Shown here piece by piece: positions 1,074-19,307 of a DNA stretch of 64,000 nucleotides. The notes under the pieces are model-generated. The model was not told where the DNA came from. It searched no databases and saw nothing but the letters and a program-made list of their open reading frames with translations. Position numbers and translations under genes: made by a program. Source of the stretch: Candidatus Thorarchaeota archaeon (GTDB lineage Archaea; Asgardarchaeota; Thorarchaeia; Thorarchaeales; Thorarchaeaceae); assembly GCA_019057475.1 (NCBI GenBank), contig DXJO01000041.1, positions 64,001-128,000 of the forward strand, given 5' to 3'. Position 1 is the first letter of the stretch. Each line of letters begins with the position of its first letter.

Positions 1074-1181
1074 GGGCCGGTAGTTCAGCCTGGACGCGAC
1101 TTCACTCGCGAAGCCGCGGGGACCTAGAATGCCTCCTTGGCATGGAGGAGGTCGTGAGTTCAAATCTCACCCGGTCCACCA
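1074..1181 (+). tRNA. tRNA-Ala(GGC) with ~30-nt D-loop intron (~1095-1124)
   Basis: Acceptor GGGCCGG/CCGGTCC with G3:U70; anticodon arm CCTCC-TTGGCAT-GGAGG; T arm GTGAG-TTCAAAT-CTCAC; encoded CCA; extra hairpin cgcg..cttc/gaag..cgcg in the D loop. Confidence 0.93.
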
Positions 1182-1187
1182 TTTCTT

Positions 1188-3896
1188 CTATTCCAATGAC
1201 CCCTCTTTCTGAAGTTGCCTTCTTACTCTCTCTACGTCATCAGGTCTTTCCGCTAGCCAACTCTTAACCTTGTCAGATTTCTTCGGGTCGTTGGGTGGAG
1301 CAAGTAATGCCCATCTAATTGCATCATCCTTGGACTTGGTCTTTGCCACCCATTTCAGTGAGATTCTACCAGTTCCTTCATACAATGTAATATTCTCTGC
1401 ATAGATATGTATCTCAATGCCCAATTGCTTTGCCAAAGTCGCTTCATCATCTAACAACTTGCTTCGTTTGGTTTCTACGATTGATAATGCAGTTCGAGCA
1501 ACTTCCGATTCGGATTGCTCCTCAATTCTTGAAATCGGTATGAAGATATGCCCTCTCACCTTATCCCTTCTTACATTTTCCATACCACTCAAAAAATCAA
1601 TCTCTTTCTGCATGAATCCGGGTTCCAGTTTATATTTCACATCGTTACTTCCAGAATTGAGTACAATAGTCCGACTCCATCTGAAACCGGCATAGTGTCC
1701 GAATGATCCGTCCTCTGAAATCAAGTCTTCCAAATATGCTCTACTGGATTCGAGAGTTCCATTCCTCACAGATTCTACAAGCCGTTCATTTTGAATGGGC
1801 TTATCACCAACTGTAAATCCCCAGTAAATGAAAGCCTTGCCCACTGGTCGTGGGAGCAACATTTTGGAACATTCACTCGCTTCATTTGGCACCTGGGTAA
1901 ATGATATGTTTCCGAAGCATTGAAACTGCTTCTCTACTATTCTTATTCTATCAGCATTAGCCTCAGTGTATTGTAGCTGACCATCTGCTCCAAGCCAACA
2001 ATCGCTATTGACAACTGCACCTAACCGAGCTCGCAGAATCTCCAGTTCTTTTCCTCTGAGAAGTTTTGGATGAGGAATTCCACCGCGCCCGTTCTTCCCT
2101 GTGACCTTCTCAATCCCATCCTCAAAATCCCGTGGCGAAGCTCCCAAAATGTTGCATTGTAGATGCAAGACCTCTCCCATTGCACGTGATTGACCGCTCT
2201 TTATCCTAATCTGACTCGCGGAATCATCTGACACCATCTGCCGAATCAGTTTATTGAGATGTTGTAGTCTGGAGTAACTACCCTCATCTAGTTTGAGTCT
2301 ATCTCCAACTCTTTCTACTATGCTCGCAAGGTCTTGGCTTTTGAAGTGGAAGTAATGGTCAGCCCATACATTGATGAGATCATCGGATGTCTTGTTTGGA
2401 GTCCAGACGTAAATTCTGTTGTCCACCACACCCAACCGAATGTTTCGGTCAGATTCACTCAACCCTAGACGGTCCTGCAAAGCCGCTTCAACCTCTGTGT
2501 GGTTGGCTTCTAGAGCTTCTTTGAAGTGCGTCAATCTATCCTTGTTCAATCCCCCGGAGTTGAGTTCCAGATATGACACCTTGACCTTGGTGTCGATTGA
2601 CTCTCTATGCAGTTCCTCAGCAACATCAGTTAGTGTCTTGAGGGAATCTGATTCATTGTCACATCTCGATAGAGCTTCAAGTAGTTTGGTTAATCTAATT
2701 TCATGAACAGTTCTACTTGATAACCCCGGAAATTCTACATGTCCAATATCTCTCACAACCGCTCGCCTTTCTCTCTGTAGGTAGTCATTCAACCTTTCAT
2801 GCGCCCATTCTTTCACGATACGGTCTTCTTCGAGCCTTCGAAGAGTAGCGACGGATTCCGGTTCCTTCCCCGACCTATAATCACTGATCCGTTGTTGAAT
2901 CACTTCATGAGTCTTAGCCAGCTGTTGCTGCGTCTTTGACTTGCTATCCTTGACATCCAAATAGACACCAGCTCGCCTATAGGACTCCTGGGAATTTTTC
3001 CATCCTCGTAGATGCGGATATGTTTCCAGCAATCTGTCAATGTCGGTCATTGTTTCTATTCTGACTTCTGGGGAATGACCAACATCTCTTTCATATGCAA
3101 GATGCAACTCCTTCTTCTCAATGAATGATAGAAGCTTTGGAGTATGTCTTCGACTGCTTTCGTCTGATTCAAAATACTGTCTTATCCTGCTATACTCCTT
3201 CTCGAAGTTCTCCCTATAGCGAAATTCTGGGTATCTCTTGAGCGCTCGGTCAAAATCGTCTATTGAACGAATTACCCTGACTTGTCCGACATCTTTCTCT
3301 CTCTTGGTCATCTTGGATTCAGGTCGTCCCGTTCTCAGCCTGTGATGTTGCTGTTCCTTTGAATCCTTCCGAGTTTCCGACGCCTTTTTGTCTTCCTTGG
3401 CGTCTGTACCTGAAGACCGAAACCGCTTTTCCTGTGCGGACTCAACGCTAGAGGCTGACTCTCGCTTGGTTTTCTTGGTCGGTTTGCTTTGCTCCTCTCG
3501 TTCTTGGGAATCCTTGGTTTTTTCTTCCGAGCTATCAGCACTCCTGCGAGCAACTGAGAATCTGAAGGCTTCAGCAATGGTTCTTAGCAAGTCCCTCCCC
3601 GAGTCCTTCACTTCGGAAGTAGAAAACCGGCTTGGACGTTTTCTATTTCCGTTGGGAAACATATGCTTCCACTCACGTTCAACCCACTCATCGAACTTCT
3701 TCCTGTCGACCAAGCACGCATCTGACACGACAGGCTTGTGGTCTTTGGGAAGGTCACCGTGAAGGTGCTCCTTCTCTCTCTTCTTCAGTTTCTGTTTTCT
3801 TTGGAACTCCTGAGCAGCTTCTGTCAGTTTAGATGCTAGCTCCCTCCTAAGCCGCGCCTTGGTCTTTGATTCAATCCCTTTGAATCGGGATCCCAC
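1188..3896 (-). CDS. 902-aa protein: charged N-terminus, internal repeat, HTH, C-terminal tandem LAGLIDADG-like domain
   Basis: LGAVVNSDCWL and YLEDLISEDGSF resemble two LAGLIDADG helices; TQQQLAKTHEVIQQRISDY is HTH-like; repeat I.S/T..D.DR.L..YP..R...N. Confidence 0.65.
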   Translation of the reverse strand: MGSRFKGIESKTKARLRRELASKLTEAAQEFQRKQKLKKREKEHLHGDLPKDHKPVVSDACLVDRKKFDEWVEREWKHMFPNGNRKRPSRFSTSEVKDSGRDLLRTIAEAFRFSVARRSADSSEEKTKDSQEREEQSKPTKKTKRESASSVESAQEKRFRSSGTDAKEDKKASETRKDSKEQQHHRLRTGRPESKMTKREKDVGQVRVIRSIDDFDRALKRYPEFRYRENFEKEYSRIRQYFESDESSRRHTPKLLSFIEKKELHLAYERDVGHSPEVRIETMTDIDRLLETYPHLRGWKNSQESYRRAGVYLDVKDSKSKTQQQLAKTHEVIQQRISDYRSGKEPESVATLRRLEEDRIVKEWAHERLNDYLQRERRAVVRDIGHVEFPGLSSRTVHEIRLTKLLEALSRCDNESDSLKTLTDVAEELHRESIDTKVKVSYLELNSGGLNKDRLTHFKEALEANHTEVEAALQDRLGLSESDRNIRLGVVDNRIYVWTPNKTSDDLINVWADHYFHFKSQDLASIVERVGDRLKLDEGSYSRLQHLNKLIRQMVSDDSASQIRIKSGQSRAMGEVLHLQCNILGASPRDFEDGIEKVTGKNGRGGIPHPKLLRGKELEILRARLGAVVNSDCWLGADGQLQYTEANADRIRIVEKQFQCFGNISFTQVPNEASECSKMLLPRPVGKAFIYWGFTVGDKPIQNERLVESVRNGTLESSRAYLEDLISEDGSFGHYAGFRWSRTIVLNSGSNDVKYKLEPGFMQKEIDFLSGMENVRRDKVRGHIFIPISRIEEQSESEVARTALSIVETKRSKLLDDEATLAKQLGIEIHIYAENITLYEGTGRISLKWVAKTKSKDDAIRWALLAPPNDPKKSDKVKSWLAERPDDVERVRRQLQKEGSLE

Positions 3897-6455
3897 TCAA
3901 ACCCCTCCGCTCTCGGGCAGAGTCAAGCCCGATTGCAAGTTATCACCCACTAGCTTGGCCACCAAGTCACGGTCCGGCGGATTGGAGGGTGCTCCAAGGA
4001 TCTCAACTGAACGTTTCAGGAGAACCCAAGCGAACTCAATCGGGCTCAGGTTGGGAACCTGAAGGCTGGCCGCGTAGAATGCAATCACCTCTTCGACTCG
4101 GTGTGCTGTATCGTCCTGGCCCTTGACGCCTATTGATGCGAGGTACAGTCTGCGAAAATCATCATCCTGAACCACATCTTCAACCAGAAGTGCTAGTTGG
4201 ACTATGTCATCGCCGTTGGTTCTAGGCTCAAGTTGCGGCGCTCTTGGTGTTGCTGCAAAATCTGGATGTGTATCATAGAAGGGCTTCATTCTTCTTCTCA
4301 CATCATCATCTGTCCAATTGTGTTTCATGTCCGGATGAAACTCAGGGTCATAGAACACCTTTACCTTGGTCGGAACATCGTCAGAAGGCAAACGTAGAAC
4401 AATTTCCCCATTCTTCAGAACGCCTATGTGCCTTGCCTGCTCCGGCGTACAGCCTGTTTCCAGACCAAGCAAGTTCCAATCCTCTGGACTCGTTAAACGA
4501 TGTACAATCTTCGTATTGCAGGTCTTGAGAGCATCACGCGATAGACGCGCGGGGTTCTGGTCAGCTATCACAAGCCCGAGTCCAGAACTTCTAGCTTCTG
4601 CAAGCAGGTTCAGCAGCTGGTCCAGAACTTGTCTTCTTGAAACTGCGCCCTCGCTCATGTCGGCAATTCTGGGCAGTTCCTCAAGGAAACTATGCGCCTC
4701 ATCAATCACAAGCAGATTGCGGAGCTTTTTCGCCGGACCAAGCTTGTCAAAGAATTCGTAAACACGGATGATAAGAAGACTAAGCATAAGGGCCTTGAAG
4801 CTAGGGTCACCAATGTGCTTCAGCTCAATGATAGTTGGCTTTGAGAGCAGCTCATCGATTGGTAAGTTCCTTTCAGCGTTGAGAATTGCCGCACGCGATT
4901 GGTCACAGAGATCCTGAGCTCTTGCTACAATAGCGCCTTCGAAGTCTTTCTTGAGTTCCGCACCATATCTGAGATTTCGTGAGTAGGTTTCTGCTTCCTC
5001 TAAAAACATGTCCAGCGTGATGGGTTTTCCTGGACTGTTGTTGAGCAAATCCCATCCATTATGCTTGTACGTCCGATTTATCACCTTGCGTAAATGATTG
5101 GCGAGAATACCGTAAAGTGGCCATGCAGCCAAGAAACATGAATAGAGCAAGTCAATGTGAAGTTGAACTGGCACATTCACGTCAATCAGGAACGGATTAT
5201 GGCGGTAGGGAGCCACATCCTCCCGGCCCACCGTGAAGACGCGCATCTCAGGAATGGCACCCATGAGAATGCGTGCATCGGTTTTCACCGGCTCAATCAA
5301 CAGACTAGGAATTCCGTTCCTCCATGCGTCGATGACAATCCTGTTCTTTGTAGTGCTCTTTCCTGACCCTGACATTCCTACGATGGCCGTGTGGAGTCTA
5401 AGTTGCTCCATCTCAATGAGTTTCGTTCGTGACTTGTCAACAGTGTTGTGTCGGAATACATGACCGAGAGCGATACGACCAGTTTGGAATTCTAGGATCT
5501 CTGATGTCGATTGTGTTGCTTTGGCGCCAGATGTTGAAAATGATGCTGGGCTGCCTACTCTTGTCCCAACTTCGACACTGGGGACCTCAACCAATGAAAC
5601 CGCTTCTTCCGGCAGCAGTTCAGTTGTCATCCTCCTCCTTTCTAGCATGAGCGTCTTTCGAATCACGTTTCGGGCAATCTTACCTGAGAGAAACCTAACC
5701 TTCATCCTGGCGTTTCTGTGGCTGGATGAGAGTGCTGCAAGCAATGCATTCACAGCAGTTCTCAGCTTCTCTTCCGAATCCGGTCGATCCCAGAATGCCA
5801 ATGTGATTTGACATTTCAGAACGCGATTCGAGATTGACCTCCCATAGTTTCTCTCAAGATGTTTGAGGTTCATCTTGGCGTTTACATCAGCTTGTGTCGC
5901 AGTTTCTTGACCCCCCAGCCAAGTCTGAGTCGTTTTTTGCCTTTGGAGGCCCTCCAAAGCAGACCTGTAGCGCTTCTTTGCAAGAATTCGCCTAGCCCTA
6001 CTTGGCCTCGCAGGAACCATCCAGACTTGGTATAATGAATTACCTTCGAAGTTGACCATAATCTCTGTCATTGCCTGCAATGCTTGGACAGCCGGCTGGG
6101 GAACTCCGGTCAATAACGCAGCATTTGCTTGTCCAGCCACCAAAGGGCACCCAACTTCGGATAAGGACTGAACCACGAACTCAGGGAAGTGCGCTGCAAA
6201 GCTCTCCTTGATGACCTCCATATTCGACCTACTACCTCTTGTAACGTAGAGCAATCGAGCATTCCCTCCTGACCCTTGAATCCTGAATCCAGTTGGGACA
6301 TCCGTGTGTGAAAGAGAACTTAGGAATCTCTCAAGCTTGACATGCGTCGGACTGGAAGCCTTTTTCTCAAGATGCTTCATGGCATGCTCGAAGTAGGACC
6401 TAGGAATCTCAGTAATCTCGATTGCATACACTTGGTTCCTGTGGTTCTTTTCCAA
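3897..6455 (-). CDS. HerA/FtsK/VirB4-like P-loop ATPase
   Basis: Walker A GMSGSGKST, Walker B LLVIDEAH, EARSSGLGLVIADQNP and NTKIVHRL motifs; its TGA directly abuts the GTG of the next gene. Confidence 0.85.
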   Translation of the reverse strand: MEKNHRNQVYAIEITEIPRSYFEHAMKHLEKKASSPTHVKLERFLSSLSHTDVPTGFRIQGSGGNARLLYVTRGSRSNMEVIKESFAAHFPEFVVQSLSEVGCPLVAGQANAALLTGVPQPAVQALQAMTEIMVNFEGNSLYQVWMVPARPSRARRILAKKRYRSALEGLQRQKTTQTWLGGQETATQADVNAKMNLKHLERNYGRSISNRVLKCQITLAFWDRPDSEEKLRTAVNALLAALSSSHRNARMKVRFLSGKIARNVIRKTLMLERRRMTTELLPEEAVSLVEVPSVEVGTRVGSPASFSTSGAKATQSTSEILEFQTGRIALGHVFRHNTVDKSRTKLIEMEQLRLHTAIVGMSGSGKSTTKNRIVIDAWRNGIPSLLIEPVKTDARILMGAIPEMRVFTVGREDVAPYRHNPFLIDVNVPVQLHIDLLYSCFLAAWPLYGILANHLRKVINRTYKHNGWDLLNNSPGKPITLDMFLEEAETYSRNLRYGAELKKDFEGAIVARAQDLCDQSRAAILNAERNLPIDELLSKPTIIELKHIGDPSFKALMLSLLIIRVYEFFDKLGPAKKLRNLLVIDEAHSFLEELPRIADMSEGAVSRRQVLDQLLNLLAEARSSGLGLVIADQNPARLSRDALKTCNTKIVHRLTSPEDWNLLGLETGCTPEQARHIGVLKNGEIVLRLPSDDVPTKVKVFYDPEFHPDMKHNWTDDDVRRRMKPFYDTHPDFAATPRAPQLEPRTNGDDIVQLALLVEDVVQDDDFRRLYLASIGVKGQDDTAHRVEEVIAFYAASLQVPNLSPIEFAWVLLKRSVEILGAPSNPPDRDLVAKLVGDNLQSGLTLPESGGV

Positions 6456-6704: not shown

Positions 6705-7280
6705 ATGGAAGATATCCAATGGGTAGTCAAGCATAGGGATGAGATAAACAACTGGTACTCCGACCTTGGCGTATTTGGGGATGACGCACTCTATGAAGAT
6801 GGAGATAGTAAAGCCTACTATGAAAGCTATGTTGTCAATTATGTAGCAGCGAATGCAGAGAAATTCACAGGAAAGCCGCCCAATCATATCTGGCATGAGT
6901 TGGATGTGCACGATTTCAGATTGAAAGAAATTGAAACAGATCCTAATGTAAAACCCTGGTGGAAGGGTCGTGTTAAACCAGATTTGTTATTGCAGTTTGA
7001 CGATGCGATTTGGGTGATCGAGGTCAAATTCGGTTTCAAAAGCCCTAATCTCGAAGCAGTCCCGACGATGAAGGGTCCGAAGTCCTGCATCGATCAAGTC
7101 AGTATCTACGTAAAGAGGCTTGAAAATATGATGACTCTGGGATGGTTTCCAAACATGGAGATTCATCCGGTTGTAGTCTGGGCTTTTTGGGAAAAACGAG
7201 TACGCCCGTCCGAGATGTACATGGACGCAATCCGGTCAGAGTGGCCCTATTTGCGAGAAGACCCGTATCCGAAACCATAG
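6705..7280 (+). CDS. PD-(D/E)XK nuclease (RecB-like)
   Basis: KPDLLL...IWVIEVK followed by Q...Y (DQVSIY). Confidence 0.7.
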   Translation: MEDIQWVVKHRDEINNWYSDLGVFGDDALYEDGDSKAYYESYVVNYVAANAEKFTGKPPNHIWHELDVHDFRLKEIETDPNVKPWWKGRVKPDLLLQFDDAIWVIEVKFGFKSPNLEAVPTMKGPKSCIDQVSIYVKRLENMMTLGWFPNMEIHPVVVWAFWEKRVRPSEMYMDAIRSEWPYLREDPYPKP

Positions 7281-7470
7281 AAGGAGGCCACTTGCCCCTA
7301 TGACTGCGGGAATCGAAGTCATAACAGGGTTGATCTACCGGCCCATGTTGTTGGTTCGCAATTCTTGATGGAACGGCTAAAAGAATTGTGAAGTGAAGCG
7401 AGGACCTTGGTCATCGAAACTTAAGGAATCTATCTTTGATGGTTTTAGCTGCTCAATTATGCCTTGGCTT

Positions 7471-8899
7471 CTAGTTGATTTGCTTCTCAATGTGATTTAG
7501 GAATTTAATCAGATTGTTGAGATTCTTTCTGATGTCTAGCAATGAATCCCTATCTGTGAAACTTCCCAAGTGATGAACATCAACGTTGAAATCATTCTTC
7601 AGTTTCTCCAAATCAGCCTTTAGCTTGTCTGTTTTCTTTCTATTTGTAGTGGGAGAAAATTTGATAATCTCGTCAGGGAATGCTATCCAGAAATTGGTAA
7701 GAAGCTCACTAAAGGACTTCGATCTATATTCACCTCGTCGGTCTTTGTATAGGTAAAGGCCGGAATCGTTCTTCCCGAACTTTCGCTGCAGTATCGATAT
7801 CACAAGATTCTCTAGAAGTTTCCGTGATAGAAAAGCCGTGCAGACATAGCATCCAGCACTAAAGGCATTGTTAATCTCCTCTACGAGGTCGTACATCAAT
7901 CCTCCAAAGTCAAGAGGGTTGATATAGAAGAATGTCTGTTTTCGGGATACTGACTCCTTTTCATAAGTGGATTCTTGCACTAATGTGTCAACAAACTTAA
8001 TGTTCCCGAGAAAACGCTGAACCCATTTTGGCATTGGCCTGAAAGATGCATATTTAGCTGATGCCTGTAGCATCACATCGTTATCGATTGAAAGAAGTTG
8101 AAAGTTATCGCAATGAAATAAGGGAGTGATGTCTATCTCCTGAAGCTGGTTATGATTCAGTTTCAATTCTCTCATGAGTTTGCAATTCGCTAAAGGCGAC
8201 AGGTCTATCTTCCGAAGTCGATTGGATGAGAAATCTAGCTTCTCGAGTGAGTGTAATCCTGAAAGCGGTTCGAGTTCAATCGATTCCAACTTATTTGCTG
8301 AACATGATAACGTTCTCAATGTTTTGATATGCCTTAATGGAACAAGGTCAATTATCTTAAGGGAATTGCGTCCAATATTTAGATTCATCAATCTCCTAAG
8401 CTTCGAGAGAGGCTCTAAGTTGACTGTTTCTAATTGATTATTATAGAAATAAAGTGATTCTAGATGAGGTATGTTTCCAAGTGAGTTGAAATCTAAATCA
8501 GTCAGCATATTCTGAATCATATTTATGGTTTTCAGATTAGGATGACCTGCAAGTCCGGATAGATCAATTGCAGTGAGCTTATTCTCAGTGAGATCAAGCG
8601 ATTCAAGCCGATCACATCCATTCAATGAATCCAACTTTGCATCCTTGATTCGATTAAATGAGATATTGAGATGTTCTAACCGTTTGCATTGTTCTATGCC
8701 GTGAAGATAGAGATATTCTAAATAATTGCCACCGAGGTCTATGCTTTTTTAAAAAGCGGAAATTCGAGAAATGATTAAATTCGATTGCTGTGATTTTCAT
8801 CCCCCTTAGAGATATGTATTCCGCACTCTCATCAAACTCTTTAGATTCCTGTTCACCTGAGCTTGTCCGGAAATATACTTTCCACCTAATTACGATCAC
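7471..8899 (-). pseudogene. Leucine-rich repeat protein with C-terminal DUF4145/HEPN-like domain, split by a 1-nt frameshift near 8745-8755
   Basis: ~22-aa LRRs (L..L.L..N.L..IDL.PL); upstream ORF 8654..8899 joins in frame if one A is removed from TTTTTAAAAAA; C-terminal EINNAF..GCY....LSRKLLE. Confidence 0.75.
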
Positions 8900-8960
8900 T
8901 CCCTATGTTCCCGTAGAATACACTCTATCAACCCTAGTTGTAACTCAGAGGTCATTTTTA

Positions 8961-11798
8961 TCATTTCAATTCCTTAAGAATCAAGTTGTCTATTCGTTTC
9001 TTGGATTCCAACTCAGAGAGCCCCCAGCATTCAATGTAAGTCAAATTCAAGAACTGGAGCGCTTTCATGACATCCCTACGGTGATGTTCAGAAATCTTGG
9101 TCGCAGCTTCATGGAACATTTTGATGGCTTTAACGAAGTTTGCTTCCGCTTCTTTGCATTTGCTCAACCCATGATAGGTTTTTCCAAAATTTGCATATAT
9201 CATGGCCATTTCAACAAGATGGGTTTCTCTTGAGTTTTCAAGTAGCTTCTTCCTAATCTCCATTGATTCAAGTAGGTATTTTCCTGCCGTCCCCCATCTC
9301 TCCAAACAGTGCAGTGCAATGGCGATATTATTCAAGTTCGCTGCAATTGCAGCTCCATAGGCATTTCCTTCCTCAGGAAGTGATCGCCAAATATCTAGTG
9401 CTTCCAAGTGAAGCTCCAATGATTCTGAGCATTTTCCGATATCAGTGTAGAGAAACCCAAGAGCATTAAGTGCATTCGCAAGATTCATTTCAAAGAAACT
9501 GGATACTTCTGCATCTAGTTCTCTATAGATGGCTATGCTCTCTCTCAAGCGTTCTTCGCTTTCGTGTAGAAGTTTTGGATTTCCTGAACTGATTCCTAAT
9601 CTATGACAAGCGATTCCAAGTGCATTCAGAGTGTCAGCAACCGATGAGATATGAATATGAAACGGAAGCATTTCGTCAAGAGTTTTACGTATATCAAGAG
9701 TCTCTGTAAGCATGGAAATACTTGAATTGAGATTGCCAGAATCCTTTAGAAGTAGTCCAAGGTTGTGGAGAATCGTCCCTCTCAAAGAGAGATAGATTTC
9801 AGGGTACTTGTCTAGTTGCTGCTGAACAACATCTAAAGCTCTCCTAAAATGTAACTCTCCTTGTTTGTAGTTGCGTAGTCCATAATAGGATAAACCTAGA
9901 CTGTTATGGACTCCAACCAAATTATAGAAGAACTCTTCTTCTTTTCTGGCTGAAAGGTTTTCAAAAAGATTCAATGATTCATTCAAGGATTTCAGAGACT
10001 CGGAGAATCGACCTAGTCGACGATAGAGATTTCCTAGATTGTTCAGGTTTCCAGCTTTACCTTCCTGAGAAATGTCGGGATGTGAGTCAATGAATTGGTT
10101 GTTGATTGCCAATGCATCTTTCAAGTATGTTTCTGCATCTGTAAGTTGCCCTTTACTTCGGCATAACAATGCGTAATTGTTCAGCACGCCTGCCACATGC
10201 AACAATCTTTCATCTTTTGGTTCAATTGGTTCAGTTTTATATCTGCTAATAGCTTCCACAAATTGCACACTGGCGTCACCCAGAACACCAATGTCCAAAT
10301 AGGATTGACCTAGCATTCCCTTCTGAATTGATTTGAACCAATCTGATCGAAATTCAACAGATTCGAGCAGTTCAGATATTTCTTCATACTTGTGCCGCAT
10401 TCGAAAACTTCGCAGGATTGGTCGAAGCTCTTGCATCGCATGGTTTTCCGAGTATAATGCTGCAGAAGAAACAGCTAGTGACAGAAAAGATAGGTTTCCA
10501 CTCTCTTTGTAGTGTTTCATAAGAATTGAACTTGCTTCTAGGATGATTTCAGGCGTGTCTTCATTGACCATCCTGATGGCAAGCTCGCGTGCAATCTCAT
10601 GCATTCTGAAGTATGGCTCTTCAAAAGTAATGACACTCAATCTAATGAAATCCCTCCAAATCTGCGGGTCTAGAGATGGGCAAATTAGCCGAGCTATATT
10701 TCTGTCAAAATGCGGAATTAGGGCTAATCTACTAGCGATTGGAGATAAATGTCGAAGTCCGTCAAAGAGAAGCTTCCATGATCTCTCATATACTTCTGAT
10801 ATGGTATGTTGTTCAAAATCGGTCAACTCTGAAATGACTAAAGCATCTCTCTCAAAGGCATCACAGAAAGCATGAATTACAAACGGTGACTCGTGACTTG
10901 ATAGTATGATGATATTTCGTATCTCTTTAGGTATTCCTCTTTTTTCAAGAATTTTGTTGCAGCTTTTGCGATCAAGTTGTTGTATTTCTTTGTCCTGCCT
11001 TGATACCCCCAGCACTTGAGGTGGAAGGGGTAGCGTTCTTGCTGCAAGTACTCCTAGACTTCCCTTTACCTTGGTCAGAAATAAATGCCACAGTTCACCT
11101 TCACTTAAACTGACCACTTCATTTCCAACTTTAGAAGGAAAACGCATGAAATCATCCAAATGATCAATGGAGTCCAACATGATTAGGAATGGTAGGTCCT
11201 TCTCCGTTACGGCATTATTCAAATCTTGGGCTAAACCATCAAGAAAAAGTTGAATAGCGAACCCTGGGTTTACTCTAAGAAGCTCTAGGAATCGTCGACC
11301 ATAATCCTTGCCAAGTTGTTCCTTCAACCAAACGCCCACTTCTCCAAAATGCATGTCTACAAGTTTATGCAGTTTCTTTCCGGTAGTAGACATGGCTACT
11401 GCGATTTTGGCAATCTGGCTTAAAGGGGGAATCCAATCCACTAAGTCTTTGATCCATCGCTTGCTTTCAGGCCTATGAGGTTCAATTCCCTTGACTAATC
11501 GAGTTCTAAGATCCAGCAGTCGATTGGATATGCTTGTCTTAATCCCCTTAGCATTGATTTCTCTGACTAGTGCCCTGTATCTTGAGTAGAAATCTCCATG
11601 GTCTCTGAAATTAACTAGAAATGAGTATTCATGCCTATGTACCAATGCCTTGAGAATGGCACTCTTTCCAATTCCTCCAATTCCGAAGATACCAACCATC
11701 GCGGTTTCTCCATCCTTGCAGGCATTCATAGTATCCAATATCCATTCAATCGTGTCCGTTCTACCCACAAAGAAAGTATCCTTTTCTAGTTGGGACAT
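8961..11798 (-). CDS. STAND-like NTPase with C-terminal TPR array
   Basis: FVGR..., Walker A GIGGIGKS, Walker B LIMLDSID, RMHEIARE (MHD-like), many LNNLG/LNALG TPRs. Confidence 0.85.
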   Translation of the reverse strand: MSQLEKDTFFVGRTDTIEWILDTMNACKDGETAMVGIFGIGGIGKSAILKALVHRHEYSFLVNFRDHGDFYSRYRALVREINAKGIKTSISNRLLDLRTRLVKGIEPHRPESKRWIKDLVDWIPPLSQIAKIAVAMSTTGKKLHKLVDMHFGEVGVWLKEQLGKDYGRRFLELLRVNPGFAIQLFLDGLAQDLNNAVTEKDLPFLIMLDSIDHLDDFMRFPSKVGNEVVSLSEGELWHLFLTKVKGSLGVLAARTLPLPPQVLGVSRQDKEIQQLDRKSCNKILEKRGIPKEIRNIIILSSHESPFVIHAFCDAFERDALVISELTDFEQHTISEVYERSWKLLFDGLRHLSPIASRLALIPHFDRNIARLICPSLDPQIWRDFIRLSVITFEEPYFRMHEIARELAIRMVNEDTPEIILEASSILMKHYKESGNLSFLSLAVSSAALYSENHAMQELRPILRSFRMRHKYEEISELLESVEFRSDWFKSIQKGMLGQSYLDIGVLGDASVQFVEAISRYKTEPIEPKDERLLHVAGVLNNYALLCRSKGQLTDAETYLKDALAINNQFIDSHPDISQEGKAGNLNNLGNLYRRLGRFSESLKSLNESLNLFENLSARKEEEFFYNLVGVHNSLGLSYYGLRNYKQGELHFRRALDVVQQQLDKYPEIYLSLRGTILHNLGLLLKDSGNLNSSISMLTETLDIRKTLDEMLPFHIHISSVADTLNALGIACHRLGISSGNPKLLHESEERLRESIAIYRELDAEVSSFFEMNLANALNALGFLYTDIGKCSESLELHLEALDIWRSLPEEGNAYGAAIAANLNNIAIALHCLERWGTAGKYLLESMEIRKKLLENSRETHLVEMAMIYANFGKTYHGLSKCKEAEANFVKAIKMFHEAATKISEHHRRDVMKALQFLNLTYIECWGLSELESKKRIDNLILKELK

Positions 11799-11953
11799 CT
11801 TCGGTCACCAGGTGAAGAAACGCTTATCTTTGAGGACGAGTATCAAAATGCATTTCTCTGCAAAACAAGAGAGATGGCAATGCTTGCGAGTCCTCAAGAC
11901 AGTTGCTAATACCGAAAGCATTTCATTCTTCCTGATTTCGGTCTTCTAGTTCC

Positions 11954-12913
11954 TTGATTATTGGTTCTATGCACATCCATGAATCTTTATGTCAATCCAC
12001 TGAAGCAACAAACGAGGGTTATGAATTGCTAACTGACAACCGACAGACGATGTTGGACAGAAATGTGGATTATTGCAGACAAGTAGTGGTTGTTGTAATA
12101 GCTGCAGTTGGAGCATACTGGTCCACAACTCTGGCATCGGAGGTTTTGCTACCATGGACTCTGTTCCTGTTTGGAGGCGCCATTATTTACACTCTCGTTC
12201 TGCCATACAAAAGAGCATCATTGATAGAGGGCCGTTGGGGTCTTCCAGCCAGAGTCAAGGCACTTACTGTTGTCTTGATGGGATCCCCCTTCTACCTGTT
12301 TCCCTCAATTGCAGTACTCTTGGACACTTCTTTGGCGGAATCCCTGCCCATGTTTCACTACCAAATCGCAACATTCCAGTTTGAAACGGCATTCAGCTCC
12401 TTCATACCACTAGTAATGAGTTTCCTATACGGAGGCTTATTCGCGTCAATACTCACTGCGCGTGTTGGTATTCGGTTCATTCTCAGGAAATTTCGCTATG
12501 GAGAGGCAGAAATAAATGAAACGCTTAGGTATGCAACAGACAGAACTGGTCGCATAGAACTTGGCTTTTCTCTTGCGATTGTCTTCGCTGCTCTTTATGT
12601 GATAGCAGGATGGTATCGCCTTGACGTTTCAAGCACGTCACAGTATTACTTCTTTGGTGCTTTTCTTCTAGTGATGATGTTAGTCTTCTATGGGTACTTC
12701 TTTGTAACCTATACACCATCTGTATGTCCCAAGTGGACTCGAAGACTCCTAGAGGCGATTCTTCTTCTCTCAATCTTTGCAACAATTATCGGCTACCTAT
12801 TGGGGATACTCTTCGCATTAGCGGCAATCACTCTTCTCCATTTCCTTTCCAACAAAGGCCGCCGCAAGCTTGAGCTTAGAGCGTTTGTTGAGGAGAAACA
12901 AGAGGAGAATTAG
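11954..12913 (+). CDS. Multi-pass membrane protein
   Basis: About 8 hydrophobic segments; start uncertain. Confidence 0.65.
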   Translation: MIIGSMHIHESLCQSTEATNEGYELLTDNRQTMLDRNVDYCRQVVVVVIAAVGAYWSTTLASEVLLPWTLFLFGGAIIYTLVLPYKRASLIEGRWGLPARVKALTVVLMGSPFYLFPSIAVLLDTSLAESLPMFHYQIATFQFETAFSSFIPLVMSFLYGGLFASILTARVGIRFILRKFRYGEAEINETLRYATDRTGRIELGFSLAIVFAALYVIAGWYRLDVSSTSQYYFFGAFLLVMMLVFYGYFFVTYTPSVCPKWTRRLLEAILLLSIFATIIGYLLGILFALAAITLLHFLSNKGRRKLELRAFVEEKQEEN

Positions 12914-13014
12914 ATGAGAAAAAGAAAAGGGAAAGAGACAAGCTTGATCAGGACCGGTGGACGTATTACTTCTACAAACTGTATCCAAGCTTAGAATATG
13001 GCATATACGGTGCG

Positions 13015-13230
13015 GTGACTTTGGGGATTCTTGGCTTCTCAGTTCTTTCACTTGTTGGATACCAAATTGGATTTGTTGAGTTGCTTCTTTTCTTGCTTCT
13101 GATTAGTGGTATCTATTTCGGACTTCCTAGGGCGTACTTCTTACTGAAAGTTCATCGCGGAGAGTTTGATGATATCGTAAGAAGGCTCGAATCCAAGCGG
13201 GTTGAAGGAGCCTTTGACCTGCTCAGTTAG
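13015..13230 (+). CDS. Small membrane protein (frame open further upstream without a canonical start)
   Basis: Two TM segments; stop lies just before the first tRNA fragment. Confidence 0.45.
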   Translation: MTLGILGFSVLSLVGYQIGFVELLLFLLLISGIYFGLPRAYFLLKVHRGEFDDIVRRLESKRVEGAFDLLS

Positions 13231-13236
13231 TCATTG

Positions 13237-13284
13237 TCCTTGGCATGGAAGAGGTCCCGAGTTCGAATCTCGCTCGGTCCACCA
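13237..13284 (+). repeat. tRNA-Ala 3'-half copy 1 (att-like)
   Basis: TCCTTGGCATGGAAGAGGTCCCGAGTTCGAATCTCGCTCGGTCCACCA; 42/48 identical to 1134-1181. Confidence 0.92.
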
Positions 13285-13341
13285 ATCATCTTCATAGTTG
13301 TTTCGGGTTTCATCCACGATTCCTAACATGAAGCCGGGCTA

Positions 13342-14256
13342 TTGCTAGCACTCTTTTATAGTACAATGGGATCAATAGATTGTGAATCAAATCATATCCA
13401 GACAATAAGGGGGCGGCTTCTAATAACGAGTCAACGCGAAAATGATTGGGGAAAAATCGTTGCTAATAAACAGGTCCAGACGTGGTTGAAGAATGATGAG
13501 GAGCATGTACTTCCAATCATGATTAAGGATTTCAGGGGCCTTTCACTTGGACCGGCCAAACTTATTCCTACCTATGACACCAAAGAGATCCCTAAAGCGC
13601 TCAAATCAATAGATGTAGAATTACTACGCAACCAAAAGGGTGGCTGCTTGTTAATCAAGAGGAAAGCTGTTGGCTCGCAGACATTGTTTCCAAAGCTTCC
13701 CACTCCCACGAAATCACATTCCGGACTCCCCTTCCAGTCAATCCCTGAATTATCTGTACTGAGAAAACCAAAATCCCGACTTGTAAATGAAGAAACAGGA
13801 ATACACTTAGCTTGGACCATGGGCATCCTTCAATCTTTTTTCATGGAGGTTTTCTCTCCGTACGAGCAATTTGCAGTTGGGGGAAGATTGAAGACGCGTG
13901 TTAAGGGGAAGTTCATGATATTGGGTCAAGATTATCCCGTTGACGCTCTTGTCGAAGCTGATGGATACTTTGAATCTCGGGATAGAATAATCGTATTGGA
14001 GGCAAAACAATCAGACAACAATCAATTTTGTGCAGACTTTAGCATCCATCAACTCCTACTACCTCTCATGTTGGTAAGAGGAATCACTAAGAAGATGAGT
14101 AGTGGGATGTTCTTAGACTATTCAATTAGCAGAAGTGATGGACGAGCAACAGTAAACTACAGGATTTACCACTATGATATCCCTGGAAGCGATTCATCGA
14201 TTGATCCGTTTAGTTACAGAGCAGGCTCGTCAAAGGAATATTTGATAACCATTTAG
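13342..14256 (+). CDS. Type II restriction endonuclease-like PD-(D/E)XK protein
   Basis: VEADGYFE...IIVLEAKQ...DFSIHQL motif. Confidence 0.65.
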   Translation: MLALFYSTMGSIDCESNHIQTIRGRLLITSQRENDWGKIVANKQVQTWLKNDEEHVLPIMIKDFRGLSLGPAKLIPTYDTKEIPKALKSIDVELLRNQKGGCLLIKRKAVGSQTLFPKLPTPTKSHSGLPFQSIPELSVLRKPKSRLVNEETGIHLAWTMGILQSFFMEVFSPYEQFAVGGRLKTRVKGKFMILGQDYPVDALVEADGYFESRDRIIVLEAKQSDNNQFCADFSIHQLLLPLMLVRGITKKMSSGMFLDYSISRSDGRATVNYRIYHYDIPGSDSSIDPFSYRAGSSKEYLITI

Positions 14257-14304
14257 CCTCTTTGGATAACTTAGCACTTGTGACGCACTCTGCGTGCATC
14301 CAAA

Positions 14305-14344
14305 ATGGAAGAGGTTGCGAGCTCGAATCTCGGGTGGTCCACCA
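14305..14344 (+). repeat. tRNA-Ala 3'-end copy 2
   Basis: ATGGAAGAGGTTGCGAGCTCGAATCTCGGGTGGTCCACCA; 31/40 identical to the tRNA 3' end. Confidence 0.85.
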
Positions 14345-14440: not shown

Positions 14441-14923
14441 ATGCTCTTCGTCACAGTTGCAGGTCTACTCTCATGGTTTATTCCAAGAAGAAGAGTGCAG
14501 TGGAAATGGTCTCTTGTAGCCTTTCTCCTAGTGACTTTGACAGTTTCATTATGGGTCATAGATGATGTCCGAGCAGCCGGTGTGGTACGTGATGTCACTC
14601 GTTCAGAAGGAGACCTTGTCTACTCCATTGTATATCTCAACAGCACTGCATTGTTCCCGTTTGTACTGCAGAAGCATCACAATTGGACCGCAAGGTCATT
14701 CGTATACTATATTCGGTTCTTGAACCATGATGGTAGCCTAGTTTCTCAGACAAGGCCAGGCCCCGATCAGAGTGAGTTTATGCATATGGCTTTGTTTGCA
14801 ATATCGATTTCCCTCTGCTTTCAAGGATTCATAATAGCTCTGCTTGCAATTCTAGGGGCGGAATTCATCACATGGTGGCGAAAACCGAACAGAATGGATA
14901 TTCTGCGTAGTATTACAGAGTAA
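14441..14923 (+). CDS. Membrane protein
   Basis: Three TM segments; sole gene between repeats 2 and 3. Confidence 0.6.
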   Translation: MLFVTVAGLLSWFIPRRRVQWKWSLVAFLLVTLTVSLWVIDDVRAAGVVRDVTRSEGDLVYSIVYLNSTALFPFVLQKHHNWTARSFVYYIRFLNHDGSLVSQTRPGPDQSEFMHMALFAISISLCFQGFIIALLAILGAEFITWWRKPNRMDILRSITE

Positions 14924-14942: not shown

Positions 14943-14970
14943 GCGAGTTCGAATCTCGCCCGGCCCACCA
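14943..14970 (+). repeat. tRNA 3'-end copy 3
   Basis: GCGAGTTCGAATCTCGCCCGGCCCACCA; 24/28 identical; intact T arm. Confidence 0.9.
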
Positions 14971-15002: not shown

Positions 15003-15467
15003 TCATCCACGACTCCGCTCATGAAGTCGAGTTCGAATTCTGTCAAGCAACAGGCGTATGTCTATTCGGTAGGGCGAGAAGAGATAAAGCAGTCCTAGAG
15101 CAACCCAGACAATCCAGATTCCACAATGTATGAACATTATGTAGAATACCTGGTCAATAAGATATCCATGTGAAAGCGCCTGATACCCCCCGGACGGAGC
15201 TGGAATGGGAAGGAATCTCCCGGGAGGGAGGCTTGACCACATCAACCCCTCTTCGAGGCTCCACCACCAACCACCAATAAACCAAGCGGATATCAAAATC
15301 CAAATGTAGTAGACCAAAATGAGAGCAACCATGACGCGGCGTATCCGGGCAGCCCTGTCCACATGACGCCTCACTAGCAGGTTTTGATTCCGGAACTCCA
15401 CATTCAGAGTATTCGATTCACTCATCGATATCTCACAATTCCAGAGCAATGATACTCTACGAGTCAA
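15003..15467 (-). CDS. Membrane protein
   Basis: Two TM segments; sole gene between repeats 3 and 4. Confidence 0.6.
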   Translation of the reverse strand: MTRRVSLLWNCEISMSESNTLNVEFRNQNLLVRRHVDRAARIRRVMVALILVYYIWILISAWFIGGWWWSLEEGLMWSSLPPGRFLPIPAPSGGYQALSHGYLIDQVFYIMFIHCGIWIVWVALGLLYLFSPYRIDIRLLLDRIRTRLHERSRG

Positions 15468-15531: not shown

Positions 15532-15552
15532 CGAATCTCGGCGGGTCCATCA
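15532..15552 (+). repeat. tRNA 3'-end copy 4 (degenerate)
   Basis: CGAATCTCGGCGGGTCCATCA. Confidence 0.65.
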
Positions 15553-15592: not shown

Positions 15593-16195
15593 ATGAAACA
15601 CAAACTGCTTCTCGAATTGCCAGAAATCCTAGAAACAGATGCACTGGTCATTAGGAAATACAGGAGAGAAGATGGAAAGCAATACAATGATCTGTTTGAG
15701 AGGAATAACAATCGAGATTTGTTGAAAGAACACGTTGATGAGGCTACAGAAATCACTACAACGGAGAAAGCTGAGATCAGGATAAGAGAACATGCTGCAG
15801 AATGGGAAGCACGAACAAGGTTTGTGATGGGCGTATGGTTGAAGAAAGAAGAACTGTATATTGGCCAGATTTGGATTGAGCCCAAGAATTGGGAAGTACC
15901 GTCATTCGAACTCGGCTATTTCTTGGATGACGGATATCAGGGACATGGCATTGCATTTGTAGCAGCTAAACGTTCTCTAAGGTTCCTCTTCGATGAACTT
16001 CACGCTCACAAAGTGATGATTCTGACACGTGACACAAACGAAAAGAGCTGGAAACTAGCTGAACGACTTGGTTTTGTGAGGGAAGGTCATCTAAGGGAAT
16101 GCGGCGTTGGGAGTGGCAAACGTTGGGGTCAGTATCATTATGGAATGCTTGTAGGAGAGTACAGGACAAAGCAAAAGGGTACTTCACAGGGATAG
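15593..16195 (+). CDS. GNAT acetyltransferase, RimJ/RimL family
   Basis: ELGYFL...YQGHGIA and NEKSWKLAERLGFVREG.LR motifs. Confidence 0.88.
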   Translation: MKHKLLLELPEILETDALVIRKYRREDGKQYNDLFERNNNRDLLKEHVDEATEITTTEKAEIRIREHAAEWEARTRFVMGVWLKKEELYIGQIWIEPKNWEVPSFELGYFLDDGYQGHGIAFVAAKRSLRFLFDELHAHKVMILTRDTNEKSWKLAERLGFVREGHLRECGVGSGKRWGQYHYGMLVGEYRTKQKGTSQG

Positions 16196-16681
16196 CATGA
16201 TTCAATCTCAAAGGAATCTGATGCTGGCCATCTTATCGCTGATTCCAATCATGTATTCATTCTAAGGGTCGCTAAATTGAAATCGCAAAGTTGTGAAAAA
16301 CACTATAAGTTTTCATGAGCATTAAGAGATTGAGGAGTTTCTTTGCAGCTTGAGATTGTCCCTGAAACCGTTCTCATAAGCGTCTTTGTGGGGACATGCC
16401 TTCTCTTCACACTATACCTGATATTGAAGACATGTTCTGAAAGAAATTTGGTAAGACCTGAACGAAGGGGAGGAACACCGAGGGTTGACGACTTGACCGC
16501 AACACAGAGTGCATATGGGCATGAGGTTTCGTATTCCTCTAGCATCCGTGGGTGTGGATCTTCAGCAGGTCCTTTTCCAATTGGTGGAAGAACAGAAAGA
16601 CTTCCCACAAGGTCGTTTGGAAGCTACACTAAACCGAGAAGGAAATCAAAGAAAAGCTGACTTGTGACTTGAGGAAATCCT

Positions 16682-16711
16682 GGTGCGAATCGAATCTCGC
16701 CCGGTCCAGCA
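16682..16711 (+). repeat. tRNA 3'-end copy 5
   Basis: GGTGCGAATCGAATCTCGCCCGGTCCAGCA. Confidence 0.8.
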
Positions 16712-17029: not shown

Positions 17030-17836
17030 ATGATAAATAGAAGCAACGCCGAAAGGAATTCTATGAACGAGACTTTGAAGACAATTGATGATCGGAAATC
17101 GTTGAGAGGATATGATTCAAGAGAGATTTCTTCAGAACACAAGAAGTGGATTCTCCACAGTGCTTTTCGAGCTCCTACCGCGGGGAATATGATGCTTTAT
17201 TCCATCATTGAAGTAGCAGATCAAAAGATGAAGGATAAACTAGTCAAGACATGTGACAACCAACCCTTCATAGCCAAAGCCCCCCTTGTGTTATTGTTCC
17301 TTTCAGACATGCAGAGATGGTACGACCTCTTCGAATATTCCAGTGTACCAGACCTATGCAAGGAGCGAAGCATCGAATATGTCACCCCAAAAGAATCAGA
17401 CTTGCTGCTCGCTTCCTGTGATGCACTGATAGCGGCACAAAATGCTGTGATTGCTGCTGAGTCTTTGGGCATAGGTTCGTGCTACATTGGCGACATAATG
17501 GAGAACATAGAGATTCACAGAGAGATGTTTAATCTACCTAAGTGGGTCTTTCCAATAGCGCTTCTATGCTTCGGCTATCCCCGACGGGATGACCGGGATG
17601 ACCGTGAGAAGACACCCCGATTCCCTGAACACTTGGTGTATTTCAAGAACAAATACATCCGAACAGATGGTAAAGAATTCGAGTCAACACTCATGGCTCA
17701 AACCAGGGATAAGGAAGCCATCTTCAAAAAGGCCAAGAACATTGGGCAGTTCATCTATTTACGGAAGACCGGTGCAGACTTTACTACCGAGATGCGTCGT
17801 TCAGTCAAGGTCGCAATTACCGACTGGATTGAATGA
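17030..17836 (+). CDS. Nitroreductase family protein (NfsA/FRP-like)
   Basis: RKSLR, APTAGN, DALIAAQNAVIAAESLGIGSCYIG. Confidence 0.92.
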   Translation: MINRSNAERNSMNETLKTIDDRKSLRGYDSREISSEHKKWILHSAFRAPTAGNMMLYSIIEVADQKMKDKLVKTCDNQPFIAKAPLVLLFLSDMQRWYDLFEYSSVPDLCKERSIEYVTPKESDLLLASCDALIAAQNAVIAAESLGIGSCYIGDIMENIEIHREMFNLPKWVFPIALLCFGYPRRDDRDDREKTPRFPEHLVYFKNKYIRTDGKEFESTLMAQTRDKEAIFKKAKNIGQFIYLRKTGADFTTEMRRSVKVAITDWIE

Positions 17837-17875
17837 ATCAAGAATCGGTGCTAGACTGCGGATTACCAAATCGAT

Positions 17876-18724
17876 GTGAAGAGGTCGCCAGTTATGAATT
17901 CAGTTGCTCTGGTGAAGTGCAAAAGCAGCGTCGGCAAAGCCCTACAAGAGGGCCTTGAGCATATTGGTGGTTTCGGGGTTCTAGATTCTCCAGTTCTCAT
18001 CAAACCAAATATCTGCACAATATCAGACGATACAGGATACTCTGTTACTCAGGTAGAGGTTGTCAAAGCTTTAGTCGAGCTGTTATTGCAAACTGATGAG
18101 GACCTATCCATCAAGATTGTTGAGTCTGACAGCCAGAGTAAGTTTGCAGAAGAAGCCTTTGAGAAGTTCGGATACAAACGACTCTGTGATGATATGAAGG
18201 ACTCAGGATTCGATGTAAGGACTGTTGACCTCAGTAAGGACCCCTTGATGGAGCTCCAGTTCGTTGGGGATTACTTCGAGAATCCTGAACTGCCAGAAAC
18301 AGTCCTCAATGCAGGATATTTCATCTCAGTTGCAGTCCCTAAGACACACTATCTTTCCTTTATCACGGGGGCTTTGAAGAATCTCTTTGGAATCCTTCCA
18401 AGAAAAGACCAAGCGTACTATCATTCAAAGATAGATGAAGTGATTGTGGATTTAGCTAGAATCATCAGACCGAACCTATGCATTATTGACGCAAGAATAG
18501 GCGTTGAGGGATGGAATGGTCCTAAAACAAGAAGGCTTGATGCATACATCGTGGGACACGGAGCAGTATCAGTAGATGCAACAATGGCACGAATCATGGG
18601 TTTCGAGCCTGAACAGATTCGTCACATCATGGATTCGCATGATTATGATCTGGGTACGATTGATCCCACTGTTCTTGGTGAATCTATCGAGTCGATCGCA
18701 GTCAATTTCAAACCTCCGAGATAG
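17876..18724 (+). CDS. DUF362 family protein
   Basis: VLIKPN, VPKTH, GALKNLFG, VDAT.ARIMG. Confidence 0.85.
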   Translation: MKRSPVMNSVALVKCKSSVGKALQEGLEHIGGFGVLDSPVLIKPNICTISDDTGYSVTQVEVVKALVELLLQTDEDLSIKIVESDSQSKFAEEAFEKFGYKRLCDDMKDSGFDVRTVDLSKDPLMELQFVGDYFENPELPETVLNAGYFISVAVPKTHYLSFITGALKNLFGILPRKDQAYYHSKIDEVIVDLARIIRPNLCIIDARIGVEGWNGPKTRRLDAYIVGHGAVSVDATMARIMGFEPEQIRHIMDSHDYDLGTIDPTVLGESIESIAVNFKPPR

Positions 18725-18771: not shown

Positions 18772-18792
18772 CAAATCTCACTCGGTCCACCA
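18772..18792 (+). repeat. tRNA 3'-end copy 6
   Basis: CAAATCTCACTCGGTCCACCA; 20/21 identical to the resident tRNA end. Confidence 0.85.
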
Positions 18793-18948: not shown

Positions 18949-19200
18949 ATGAAATTCCTCATAGAATGGCATACTAAGCCAAAACATAGAGAGAAGTTGA
19001 ATAATCTAATCGAAAAGTGGAAGCCTCCAGACGAATTTAAATTCTTGATTCCGCCTTATCACGTGGTGGGTGGTCATCGAGGCATGGCTGTAATTGAAGT
19101 CGATGATGTGGAAATCCTCCAGAAGGGTCTAGGATTCTTCATGGATTTCGCGGATTTCGTGGTCACACCGATCCGTCCTTTGCTTCCTGTTCCTAAGTAG
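18949..19200 (+). CDS. DUF3303-like small protein
   Basis: MKFLIEW...GGHRGMAVIEVDD...VTPI pattern. Confidence 0.7.
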   Translation: MKFLIEWHTKPKHREKLNNLIEKWKPPDEFKFLIPPYHVVGGHRGMAVIEVDDVEILQKGLGFFMDFADFVVTPIRPLLPVPK

Positions 19201-19284
19201 TCCAGTTATCTATCAACTTGTGCATTGGAACTCTTTCAGTGAGTACGATACCCCATTCAATAAGAGAAAGAAAGAGCCTATCGA

Positions 19285-19307
19285 TTCGAATCTCACCCGG
19301 GCCACCA
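19285..19307 (+). repeat. tRNA 3'-end copy 7
   Basis: TTCGAATCTCACCCGGGCCACCA; 21/23 identical. Confidence 0.85.

Follow-up and report, generated by a model that had tools for sequence, protein, structure and literature searches.

How does a tRNA gene come to be followed by a row of copies of its own 3' end, with different genes lodged between them? The question is raised by a window (the whole stretch of DNA analysed, 64,000 nucleotides (nt)) from the genome of Candidatus Thorarchaeota archaeon (assembly GCA_019057475.1, contig DXJO01000041.1, positions 64,001 to 128,000), in which a tRNA-Ala(GGC) gene anchors such an array of gene cassettes (Table 1). An initial annotation of the window, made from its sequence alone, had proposed an integron-like platform served in trans by a tyrosine recombinase. 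We favour another reading, to which we give an even chance of being right, namely that the cassette array was built by break-and-repair recombination at tRNA-Ala(GGC) and not by an integrase.

Cassettes between tRNA-Ala ends and their turnover

ARAGORN misses the anchoring tRNA gene and Rfam scores its 3' part; its exon register was taken from an intron-free allele in relative G005 (G labels denote the 86 genomes of the family set, G000 being the genome of the window, and L labels denote fetched loci or contigs). Searching with the last 20 nt of the tRNA and allowing at most 5 mismatches, we identified 7 copies on the same strand and 0 on the opposite strand, compared with a mean of 0.08 and a maximum of 2 in shuffled sequence. 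These copies, all on the forward strand and all intergenic by an open reading frame (ORF) check, end in CCA or a decayed CCA at positions 13284, 14344, 14970, 15552, 16711, 18792 and 19307, which confirms the seven copies reported initially; a decayed eighth is added here. The units that they close measure, in order, 12103, 1060, 626, 582, 1159, 2081 and 515 bp, and the GC content of the array units is 43-48% (genome, 48%).

Between close relatives, the gene-sized units enclosed by tRNA 3' copies vary in both content and order. The site is empty in G021 and G024, where the methyltransferase region that flanks the array on the right lies within ~200 bp of the tRNA; in G005, whose flanks are ~91% identical, 15 tRNA-end copies stand behind the tRNA, with cargo that comprises Mrr, NucS-like, two Schlafen, HEPN, HNH, deaminase, PLD and UvrD genes. 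Across 26 related arrays there are 113 inter-repeat units with a median length of 1133 bp, 88 of them at most 2 kb long (3 of the 113, closed by another tRNA or a copy of one, were later excluded); 61 of the 87 units scored hold a single ORF, and genes occur in both orientations (58 vs. 55). The order of units is D, E2, nitroreductase, DUF362, G in the window, G, DUF362, D, E2, nitroreductase in L177, and G, D, E2 in G005, and the tRNA is directly followed by unit C in G001, by D in L104, by G in G003 and by a different unit in L106. The unit joins between relatives fall mostly at repeats. The claim of gene-sized, integrase-less cassettes is therefore upheld: whole units recur in relatives and in other genera, with gain, loss and reordering mostly at repeats. 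Neither breakpoints unrelated to the repeats, nor an identical order in all relatives, nor integrase remnants in each block, which the initial annotation had named as findings that would speak against it, were encountered outright.

The array phenomenon is real and lineage-wide. At least 9 matches to the repeat motif, which also matches a few genuine tRNA genes, occur in 35 of the 86 family genomes, and 30 of those 35 belong to three genera. A unit of 553-563 bp is found in six genomes of two genera, and homologs of the unit D gene sit between tRNA-Leu copies in another genus; the DUF3303 homologs (unit G) of other genera are not repeat-bounded. Units cross lineages, judging from repeat 2, which carries an intron from another lineage: its anticodon-loop intron is missing from the tRNA-Ala of the window and present in that of G020.

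These comparisons bear on the alternative that the initial annotation itself had raised, in which larger elements integrated one after another and decayed to remnants, as in CIME or tycheposon islands, and the small units were never self-mobile. Erosion does operate: some junctions have lost their repeat, unit B opens with the scar of a D-type unit, and a nuclease remnant (the last 33 codons) starts unit 8 of G005 and unit 1 of L107. Serial accretion also has a literature (PMC5704250; bioRxiv 10.1101/2020.12.28.424599). However, units of the same size with the same ends recur reordered in close relatives, on which independent decay would not converge, and the reversed orders (G follows both E2 and DUF362 in the window but precedes them in L177) weaken this account further. 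The recurring 553-563-bp unit and the predominance of units of at most 2 kb also speak against it, as does the lack of integrase fragments, which tycheposon islands retain. The erosion half of the alternative therefore stands, and serial integration followed by decay is, as an explanation of the array, very unlikely in our estimate.

A predicted LAGLIDADG endonuclease at the head of the array

The first, 12-kb unit (unit A) is composite and begins with the genes for a 902-amino-acid (aa) protein and a HerA-like ATPase. The former, overlooked in the initial annotation as a LAGLIDADG gene, was not recognised by sequence searches (Pfam, PADLOC, PDB, PF14528); its identity was pointed to first by Atlas clusters, taken as a lead only, and then by its fold. 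An AlphaFold2 (AF2) model of residues 430-902, with a mean model confidence (pLDDT) of 90, was matched by Foldseek to I-Tsp061I (best, E 2e-6), PI-SceI and I-DmoI, and structural comparison by VIA (Z 17.7) aligned it to the TliVMA intein (root-mean-square deviation (rmsd) 2.3, 184 aligned) and to PI-PfuI (rmsd 2.7, 186); WhiA, a non-cutting LAGLIDADG protein, also matches (Z 16.7). The LAGLIDADG motifs lie at residues 625-633 and 721-730, with acidic residues D632 and D729, and position 8 of both motifs is D or E in all family members that span them. The two-motif assignment rests on the predicted model, because neither Pfam nor PDB gave a sequence match; by fold and catalytic acids, the 902-aa protein is predicted to be a LAGLIDADG homing endonuclease. 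The HerA-like ATPase, which is often coupled to the nuclease in other genomes too, is a candidate for the handling of DNA.

The position of the nuclease gene is what ties it to the array. It ends at most 11 nt from the tRNA-Ala CCA, or overlaps the tRNA end, in seven genomes (G000, G005, G011, G045, G051, G055 and G099), and it is likewise flush with the tRNA-Ala end in metagenome contigs L177, L178 and L186. The seven genomes span five genera, and their nucleases fall in one tree branch (99/98); in a second branch (100/99), the genes follow another tRNA at a distance of 27-57 nt. The family has matches in 52 of the 86 genomes, and none in the empty-site lineages (g4, 0/5; g16, represented by G021, 0/1). 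In L177 the nuclease and ATPase genes form a 4.7-kb repeat-bounded unit. The succession of tRNA 3' end, nuclease and stranded end is seen in G046, L177 and L178 and, stretched over 10-12 kb, also in G000 and G005; in G046 the gene in front is a tRNA-Val with an unusual T-arm, and the stranded end resembles the allele of relatives.

Nuclease type and tRNA allele also go together to some extent. Between G000 and G005 the nuclease part has 54-64% nucleotide identity and the N-terminal part 88-97%, a pattern that points to a swap of the nuclease part between the two. Among close relatives, the G005-type nuclease pairs with an intron-free tRNA (G005, L105, L177 and L186) and the window-type nuclease with a tRNA that has the D-loop intron. 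The commonest T-stem allele occurs in 0 of 8 nuclease-adjacent tRNAs, a small number; a tie of the nuclease to one T-stem allele was considered and found to be a weak link only.

Repair, host recombination or an integrase

The 117 repeats compared begin at preferred places: 72 start at most 29 nt from the tRNA end and 40 in the anticodon arm or in its intron, with the variable loop accounting for the other 5; 0 reach the D-arm. One D-unit subtype sits behind three different 3' T-stem alleles. In the first repeats of L106 and L107 the 3' stem mispairs with the host 5' stem, which places the crossover 3' of the T-stem, and in G048 and G051 foreign 5' stems are joined to the host 3' stem, which places it in the T-loop. 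The T-stem alleles would thus imply at least two crossover positions, although the same pattern could stem from several integrases or from later gene conversion. A single fixed overlap does not appear to fit the junctions, whereas repair with variable tracts would. Target-site duplication of host sequence alone accounts for G048 and G051 and fails for G000, G001, G005 and G050, and polarised ageing of the repeats along the arrays was rejected, since repeat decay shows no trend with distance from the tRNA (rho -0.03, n 58).

Breaks also recur at the anticodon loop, as end points in unit A, L185 and G045 coincide. In unit A, an inverted piece made of promoter and tRNA 5' half (7281-7400), which stops at the anticodon loop, has five bases in common with the start of repeat 1; the block 7324-13272 is found again in L185 (90%) with a different left neighbour and identical end points; and the stranded tRNA 3' half of G045, inverted relative to its tRNA, begins at the same bases as repeat 1. 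Such breaks may be the work either of a nuclease or of a recombinase.

Under the reading that we favour, the nuclease would cut tRNA-gene alleles that lack it, with the D-loop, the anticodon arm, the T-arm and the CCA-trailer junction as candidate sites. The left end of the break would be repaired from donor DNA by way of the long homology of the conserved tRNA and its upstream region, and the right end would anneal to one of the donor's 20-75-nt tRNA copies. A block consisting of the nuclease unit, with or without further cassettes, would be loaded ahead of the recipient array, and a tRNA 3' end would be stranded behind it, as with the mORFs of fungi. Pop-out between repeats would remove units, the nuclease included, and other deletions would erase repeats and fuse units; block loading combined with pop-out would produce lineage-specific unit orders.

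Several observations weigh against this reading. That the 902-aa protein cuts tRNA-Ala is something that we infer, and the nuclease tree does not prove targeting, as kin share neighbourhoods; three nucleases of the Ala branch lie elsewhere than at tRNA-Ala. Over the 2-16 kb read at the nuclease loci of G011, G045, G051, G055 and G099, there is no stranded same-strand copy. Of the arrays examined, only G000, G005, L105 and L107 hold the nuclease or a remnant, and most are without it. Close relatives with the same tRNA allele are without a nuclease at position 1, so that resistance of alleles is conjectural. Two further arrays of G000, on the 3' end of an acyl-CoA dehydrogenase gene (acd) and on the 16S trailer, have no member of the nuclease family; a link between the family and the acd array was dropped, with none beside that array in G000 and no shared contig seen in the family lists. 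Finally, the two-peaked distribution of repeat starts coincides with the classical integrase sublocations, the T-loop and the anticodon loop, so that the start positions do not decide the mechanism; Williams is said to have described the T-loop/T-stem and the anticodon arm in 2002 as the usual sublocations of tyrosine integrases.

A rival reading is that host homologous or microhomology recombination alone moves the cassettes, with the conserved tRNA side anchoring the incoming DNA and a repeat making the other join, and that the nuclease is just one selfish cassette, perhaps the origin of the first repeat. Similarly built arrays stand on unrelated anchors in this genome (the acd 3' end, with 15 copies over 31 kb, the 16S trailer and several tRNAs), crossovers vary, the nuclease is missing from most arrays, and Ca. 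Actinomarina gains cassettes at tRNAs, marked by partial tRNA repeats, according to a paper in which the word integrase appears nowhere (PMC7771536). Host recombination alone, however, leaves unexplained why an intact nuclease branch keeps to ~11 nt or less from this tRNA end across five genera. Moreover, whole-gene duplications aside, the repeats stop at the anticodon arm, although longer homology would favour recombination, and most are only 20-29 nt long. We consider this explanation unlikely.

A model along the lines of the initial annotation, in which non-autonomous cassettes would leave the array as circles and re-enter at tRNA-derived att sites through the tyrosine integrases of passing elements acting in trans, draws on the same two-peaked repeat starts, on the eight PF00589 matches in the G000 genome (none on this contig), and on the 5-nt overlap of the two tRNA halves in unit A, which could be a recombinase overlap. 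Conversely, searches with PF00589, with tblastn and with a profile built from 23 family integrases found no tyrosine integrase or remnant across 188 kb of arrays, and PF00589 matches, in these incomplete assemblies, occur in 29 of the 86 family genomes and not in the array-rich G010, G048, G089, G090 and G091 (83-93% complete). No tRNA gene or tRNA-end repeat lies near 16 integrase loci of relatives, and the sole IMG/VR match in a search for a viral element with this attP is a tRNA in an unrelated phage tRNA cluster. At the unit ends no 7-mer is clearly above the interior control (11 and 9 vs. 9 of 113), as shared arm-type motifs would be, and a single crossover does not appear to account for the T-stem alleles. 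Trans service by a tyrosine recombinase at a tRNA-derived att site was therefore not borne out, and we regard this model as quite unlikely. By the yardstick of tRNA islands, a direct repeat of the tRNA 3' end is present at the far boundary and an integrase in the unit is absent. The 57 family genomes without a PF00589 match include the single-contig assembly G044; archaea usually have XerA.

The array is likewise no integron or CALIN. The best match to TIGR02249 (IntI) in the whole genome, which is 96% complete, scores 31.5 bits vs. a cut-off of 265, and a simple motif test (not HattCI) of 320 nt around each of the seven repeats found no RYYYAAC...GTTRRRY pair (attC) on either strand. What remains of the integron-like description is a likeness of function, in an array of mostly single-ORF units in variable order. 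A casposon or Cas1-made duplication was rejected as well: no cas1 (PF01867) was found in G000, in 6 other genomes of its genus or in 17 of g3, and there are no terminal inverted repeats, the end-to-end inverted score of the units being equal to that of shuffled pairs.

Known systems, related arrays and cargo of the window

The fungal mitochondrial mORFs (Allomyces macrogynus atp6; Glomus atp6, atp9, cox2 and nad3; PMC3630166) share with the window an endonuclease gene (of the LAGLIDADG or GIY-YIG type) that stands on its own after a conserved gene; the conserved gene has a substitute 3' end, and its former 3' end is left stranded further downstream. In contrast to them, the conserved gene here is a chromosomal tRNA gene of an archaeon, and the nuclease, ~900 aa long and paired with a HerA-like ATPase, is encoded convergently; insertion would be repeated, in arrays that reach 15 copies and whose cargo is nuclease-free, mobility being presumed. 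SegB of T4/T6, a free-standing nuclease that cuts within tRNA genes and drives recombination-dependent amplification (PMC2988022, PMC13096335), is also a homing nuclease beside tRNA genes, with co-conversion and segmental amplification; it is, however, of the GIY-YIG type and phage-borne, and it amplifies one segment in unstable tandem, whereas the arrays here are lasting and hold different cassettes. HeimM2 of Heimdallarchaeum, whose nuclease was proposed as its integration enzyme (PMC8813620), is an 8-kb Asgard element with a leucine-rich-repeat gene and a homing-endonuclease homolog adjoining a tRNA, a likeness by description; it is a single element between 16S and tRNA-Arg, and no repeat-punctuated array is described.

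Other systems resemble the array in its layout. The additive flexible islands of Ca. Actinomarinales (PMC7771536) consist of small cassettes at tRNA genes with a partial tRNA direct repeat and are exchanged across genera, but these are marine bacteria, no enzyme is named, and the repeat survives only at the newest inserts. CIMEs (PMC5704250) and tycheposon islands (bioRxiv 10.1101/2020.12.28.424599) have partial tRNA copies between units and decay remnants, yet their elements carry integrases, of which genes or fragments remain, and none do here. Integrons and CALINs, archaeal ones included (PMC9668308), have mostly single-gene units in reshuffled order, whereas the present array has no IntI, no attC, tRNA-fragment boundaries and genes in both orientations. 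No publication on these arrays was found in the literature searched, in which coverage of subscription journals is thin.

Whether the favoured mechanism extends beyond this locus is a more tentative matter. It is possible, though short of probable, that gene capture throughout Thorarchaeota proceeds free of integrases by a LAGLIDADG family whose members are each tied to one gene end, often with a HerA-like motor, that break repair loads, duplicates and reshuffles single-gene cassettes, and that the same process spreads tRNA introns and T-arm variants as resistance alleles. If so, homing capture would be a lineage-wide equivalent of the integron built on homing. Asgard genomes hold many horizontally acquired genes, and the arrays are a concrete place of single-gene turnover, of nucleases, Schlafen, HEPN, methylases, and redox and surface proteins. 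Were the nuclease the engine, homing endonucleases would build adaptive cassette arrays beyond spreading themselves, and the turnover of tRNA introns and T-stem alleles would gain a testable cause; a new archaeal meganuclease family with predictable tRNA targets would also be a useful resource.

Within the window, unit F is probably a fusion of two cassettes, given that nitroreductase and DUF362 occupy different units in L177. The DUF6997 match of the unit B ORF scores 35.9 bits, barely above the cut-off, and the predicted structure of its product was unusable (pLDDT 35). A 319-aa ORF beside repeat 1, considered as a recombinase, turned out to be the membrane protein.

Table 1. Features of the tRNA-Ala(GGC) array and its flanks, in window coordinates
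Feature	Position	Strand	Remark
Putative tRNA-Ala promoter region (T-rich TATA-like box ~33 nt upstream)	1022..1073	+	kept upstream of tRNA-Ala in relatives
tRNA-Ala(GGC), array anchor, with 31-nt D-loop intron at ~1094-1124	1074..1181	+	
902-aa free-standing two-motif LAGLIDADG homing-endonuclease-like protein	1188..3896	-	stop 7 nt after CCA
852-aa HerA/FtsK-type P-loop ATPase	3897..6455	-	abuts nuclease gene
NERD-like nuclease ORF	6705..7280	+	weak Pfam match, E 0.006
Inverted promoter and 5' half of foreign tRNA-Ala allele, ending at anticodon loop	7281..7400	-	same block end in L185
Leucine-rich-repeat protein (cargo)	7471..8634	-	
AAA-ATPase-TPR (STAND-like) protein (cargo)	8961..11798	-	
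Membrane protein, probably split into 11954-12913 and 13015-13230	11954..13230	+	homologs 377-393 aa
Repeat 1: tRNA 3' half from anticodon stem, foreign allele	13237..13284	+	
Unit B: short scar of D-type unit, then 304-aa DUF6997 ORF (13342-14256) with PD-(D/E)xK-like motif	13285..14269	+	
Repeat 2: 75 nt, including anticodon-loop intron known from tRNA-Ala of relatives	14270..14344	+	
Unit C gene, 160 aa, no Pfam match	14441..14923	+	first unit behind tRNA in G001
Repeat 3	14943..14970	+	
Unit D gene, 154 aa, no Pfam match	15003..15467	-	three paralogous units in G001; first unit in L104
Repeat 4	15532..15552	+	
GNAT acetyltransferase (unit E1)	15593..16195	+	
Decayed eighth repeat between E1 and E2	~16213..16232	+	aligned to intact junction in G001
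Unit E2 ORF, 105 aa	16343..16660	+	separate 456-473-bp unit in G001, G005
Repeat 5	16686..16711	+	
Unit F: nitroreductase (17030-17836) and DUF362 (17876-18724)	17030..18724	+	
Repeat 6	18773..18792	+	
Unit G gene, DUF3303	18949..19200	+	514-515-bp unit also in G005, L177, at other positions
Repeat 7, array end	19283..19307	+	
Methyltransferase, conserved right flank	19383..19952	+	region within ~200 bp of tRNA in G021, G024

Elsewhere in the family, tRNA-Ala(GGC) itself is variable: among 23 loci there are nine 3' T-stem alleles vs. two acceptor and three anticodon-stem alleles, and introns have been gained or lost at the D-loop, the anticodon loop and the T-arm. Inversions around the tRNA are present in G005 (C140, oriented 1831-3086) and G045 (C34:8371-11622); both loci have an inverted tRNA 3' end and a DUF6602-type gene upstream of the tRNA, and that of G005 a nuclease remnant. 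Three further copies of the tRNA-Ala(GGC) end lie at G000:C9:1817, 2262 and 2760, where that strand has no parent tRNA; one of the unit ends recurs in G005, and the copies are an orphan piece of array or a mixture of strains. The whole tRNA-Ala(TGC) gene is repeated three times in L044 (G059:C146:2357-4075) with a period of 849 bp, and the 99% identity of the first two units points to recent tandem amplification.

Among the arrays of G000 on other anchors, the 15 copies of the acyl-CoA dehydrogenase 3' end, each with a hairpin, lie between cargo genes at C26:102020-133416, and such copies are also multiple in many relatives. Arrays on the sequence directly behind the 16S rRNA gene are found at C9:15544-29725 (5 copies) and C41:19048-25698 (at least 6), and single units of 0.6-2.8 kb closed by 3'-end copies lie behind other tRNAs (Leu, Met, Gly, Tyr and others) on C18, C21, C24, C34 and C54. 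At C42:359548-406505 (L182, L183) a full methylmalonyl-CoA mutase gene is followed by ~44 kb of other genes and then by the stranded C-terminal 352 aa of a mutase (57% identical); the last genes of the ~44-kb stretch are a 1065-aa ORF and another member of the LAGLIDADG family described here (1474 aa), and the locus is a possible large insertion of the mORF type. The 23S rRNA gene on C46 carries a group I intron (L052:12054-12384). In the window, to the right of the array, a tRNA-Phe at 21186-21300 apparently has a T-loop insertion, inside which the end called by ARAGORN (21263) falls, and two tRNA-like genes 2 nt apart at 22448-22602 have the Ile anticodons GAT and TAT, the latter rare in archaea.

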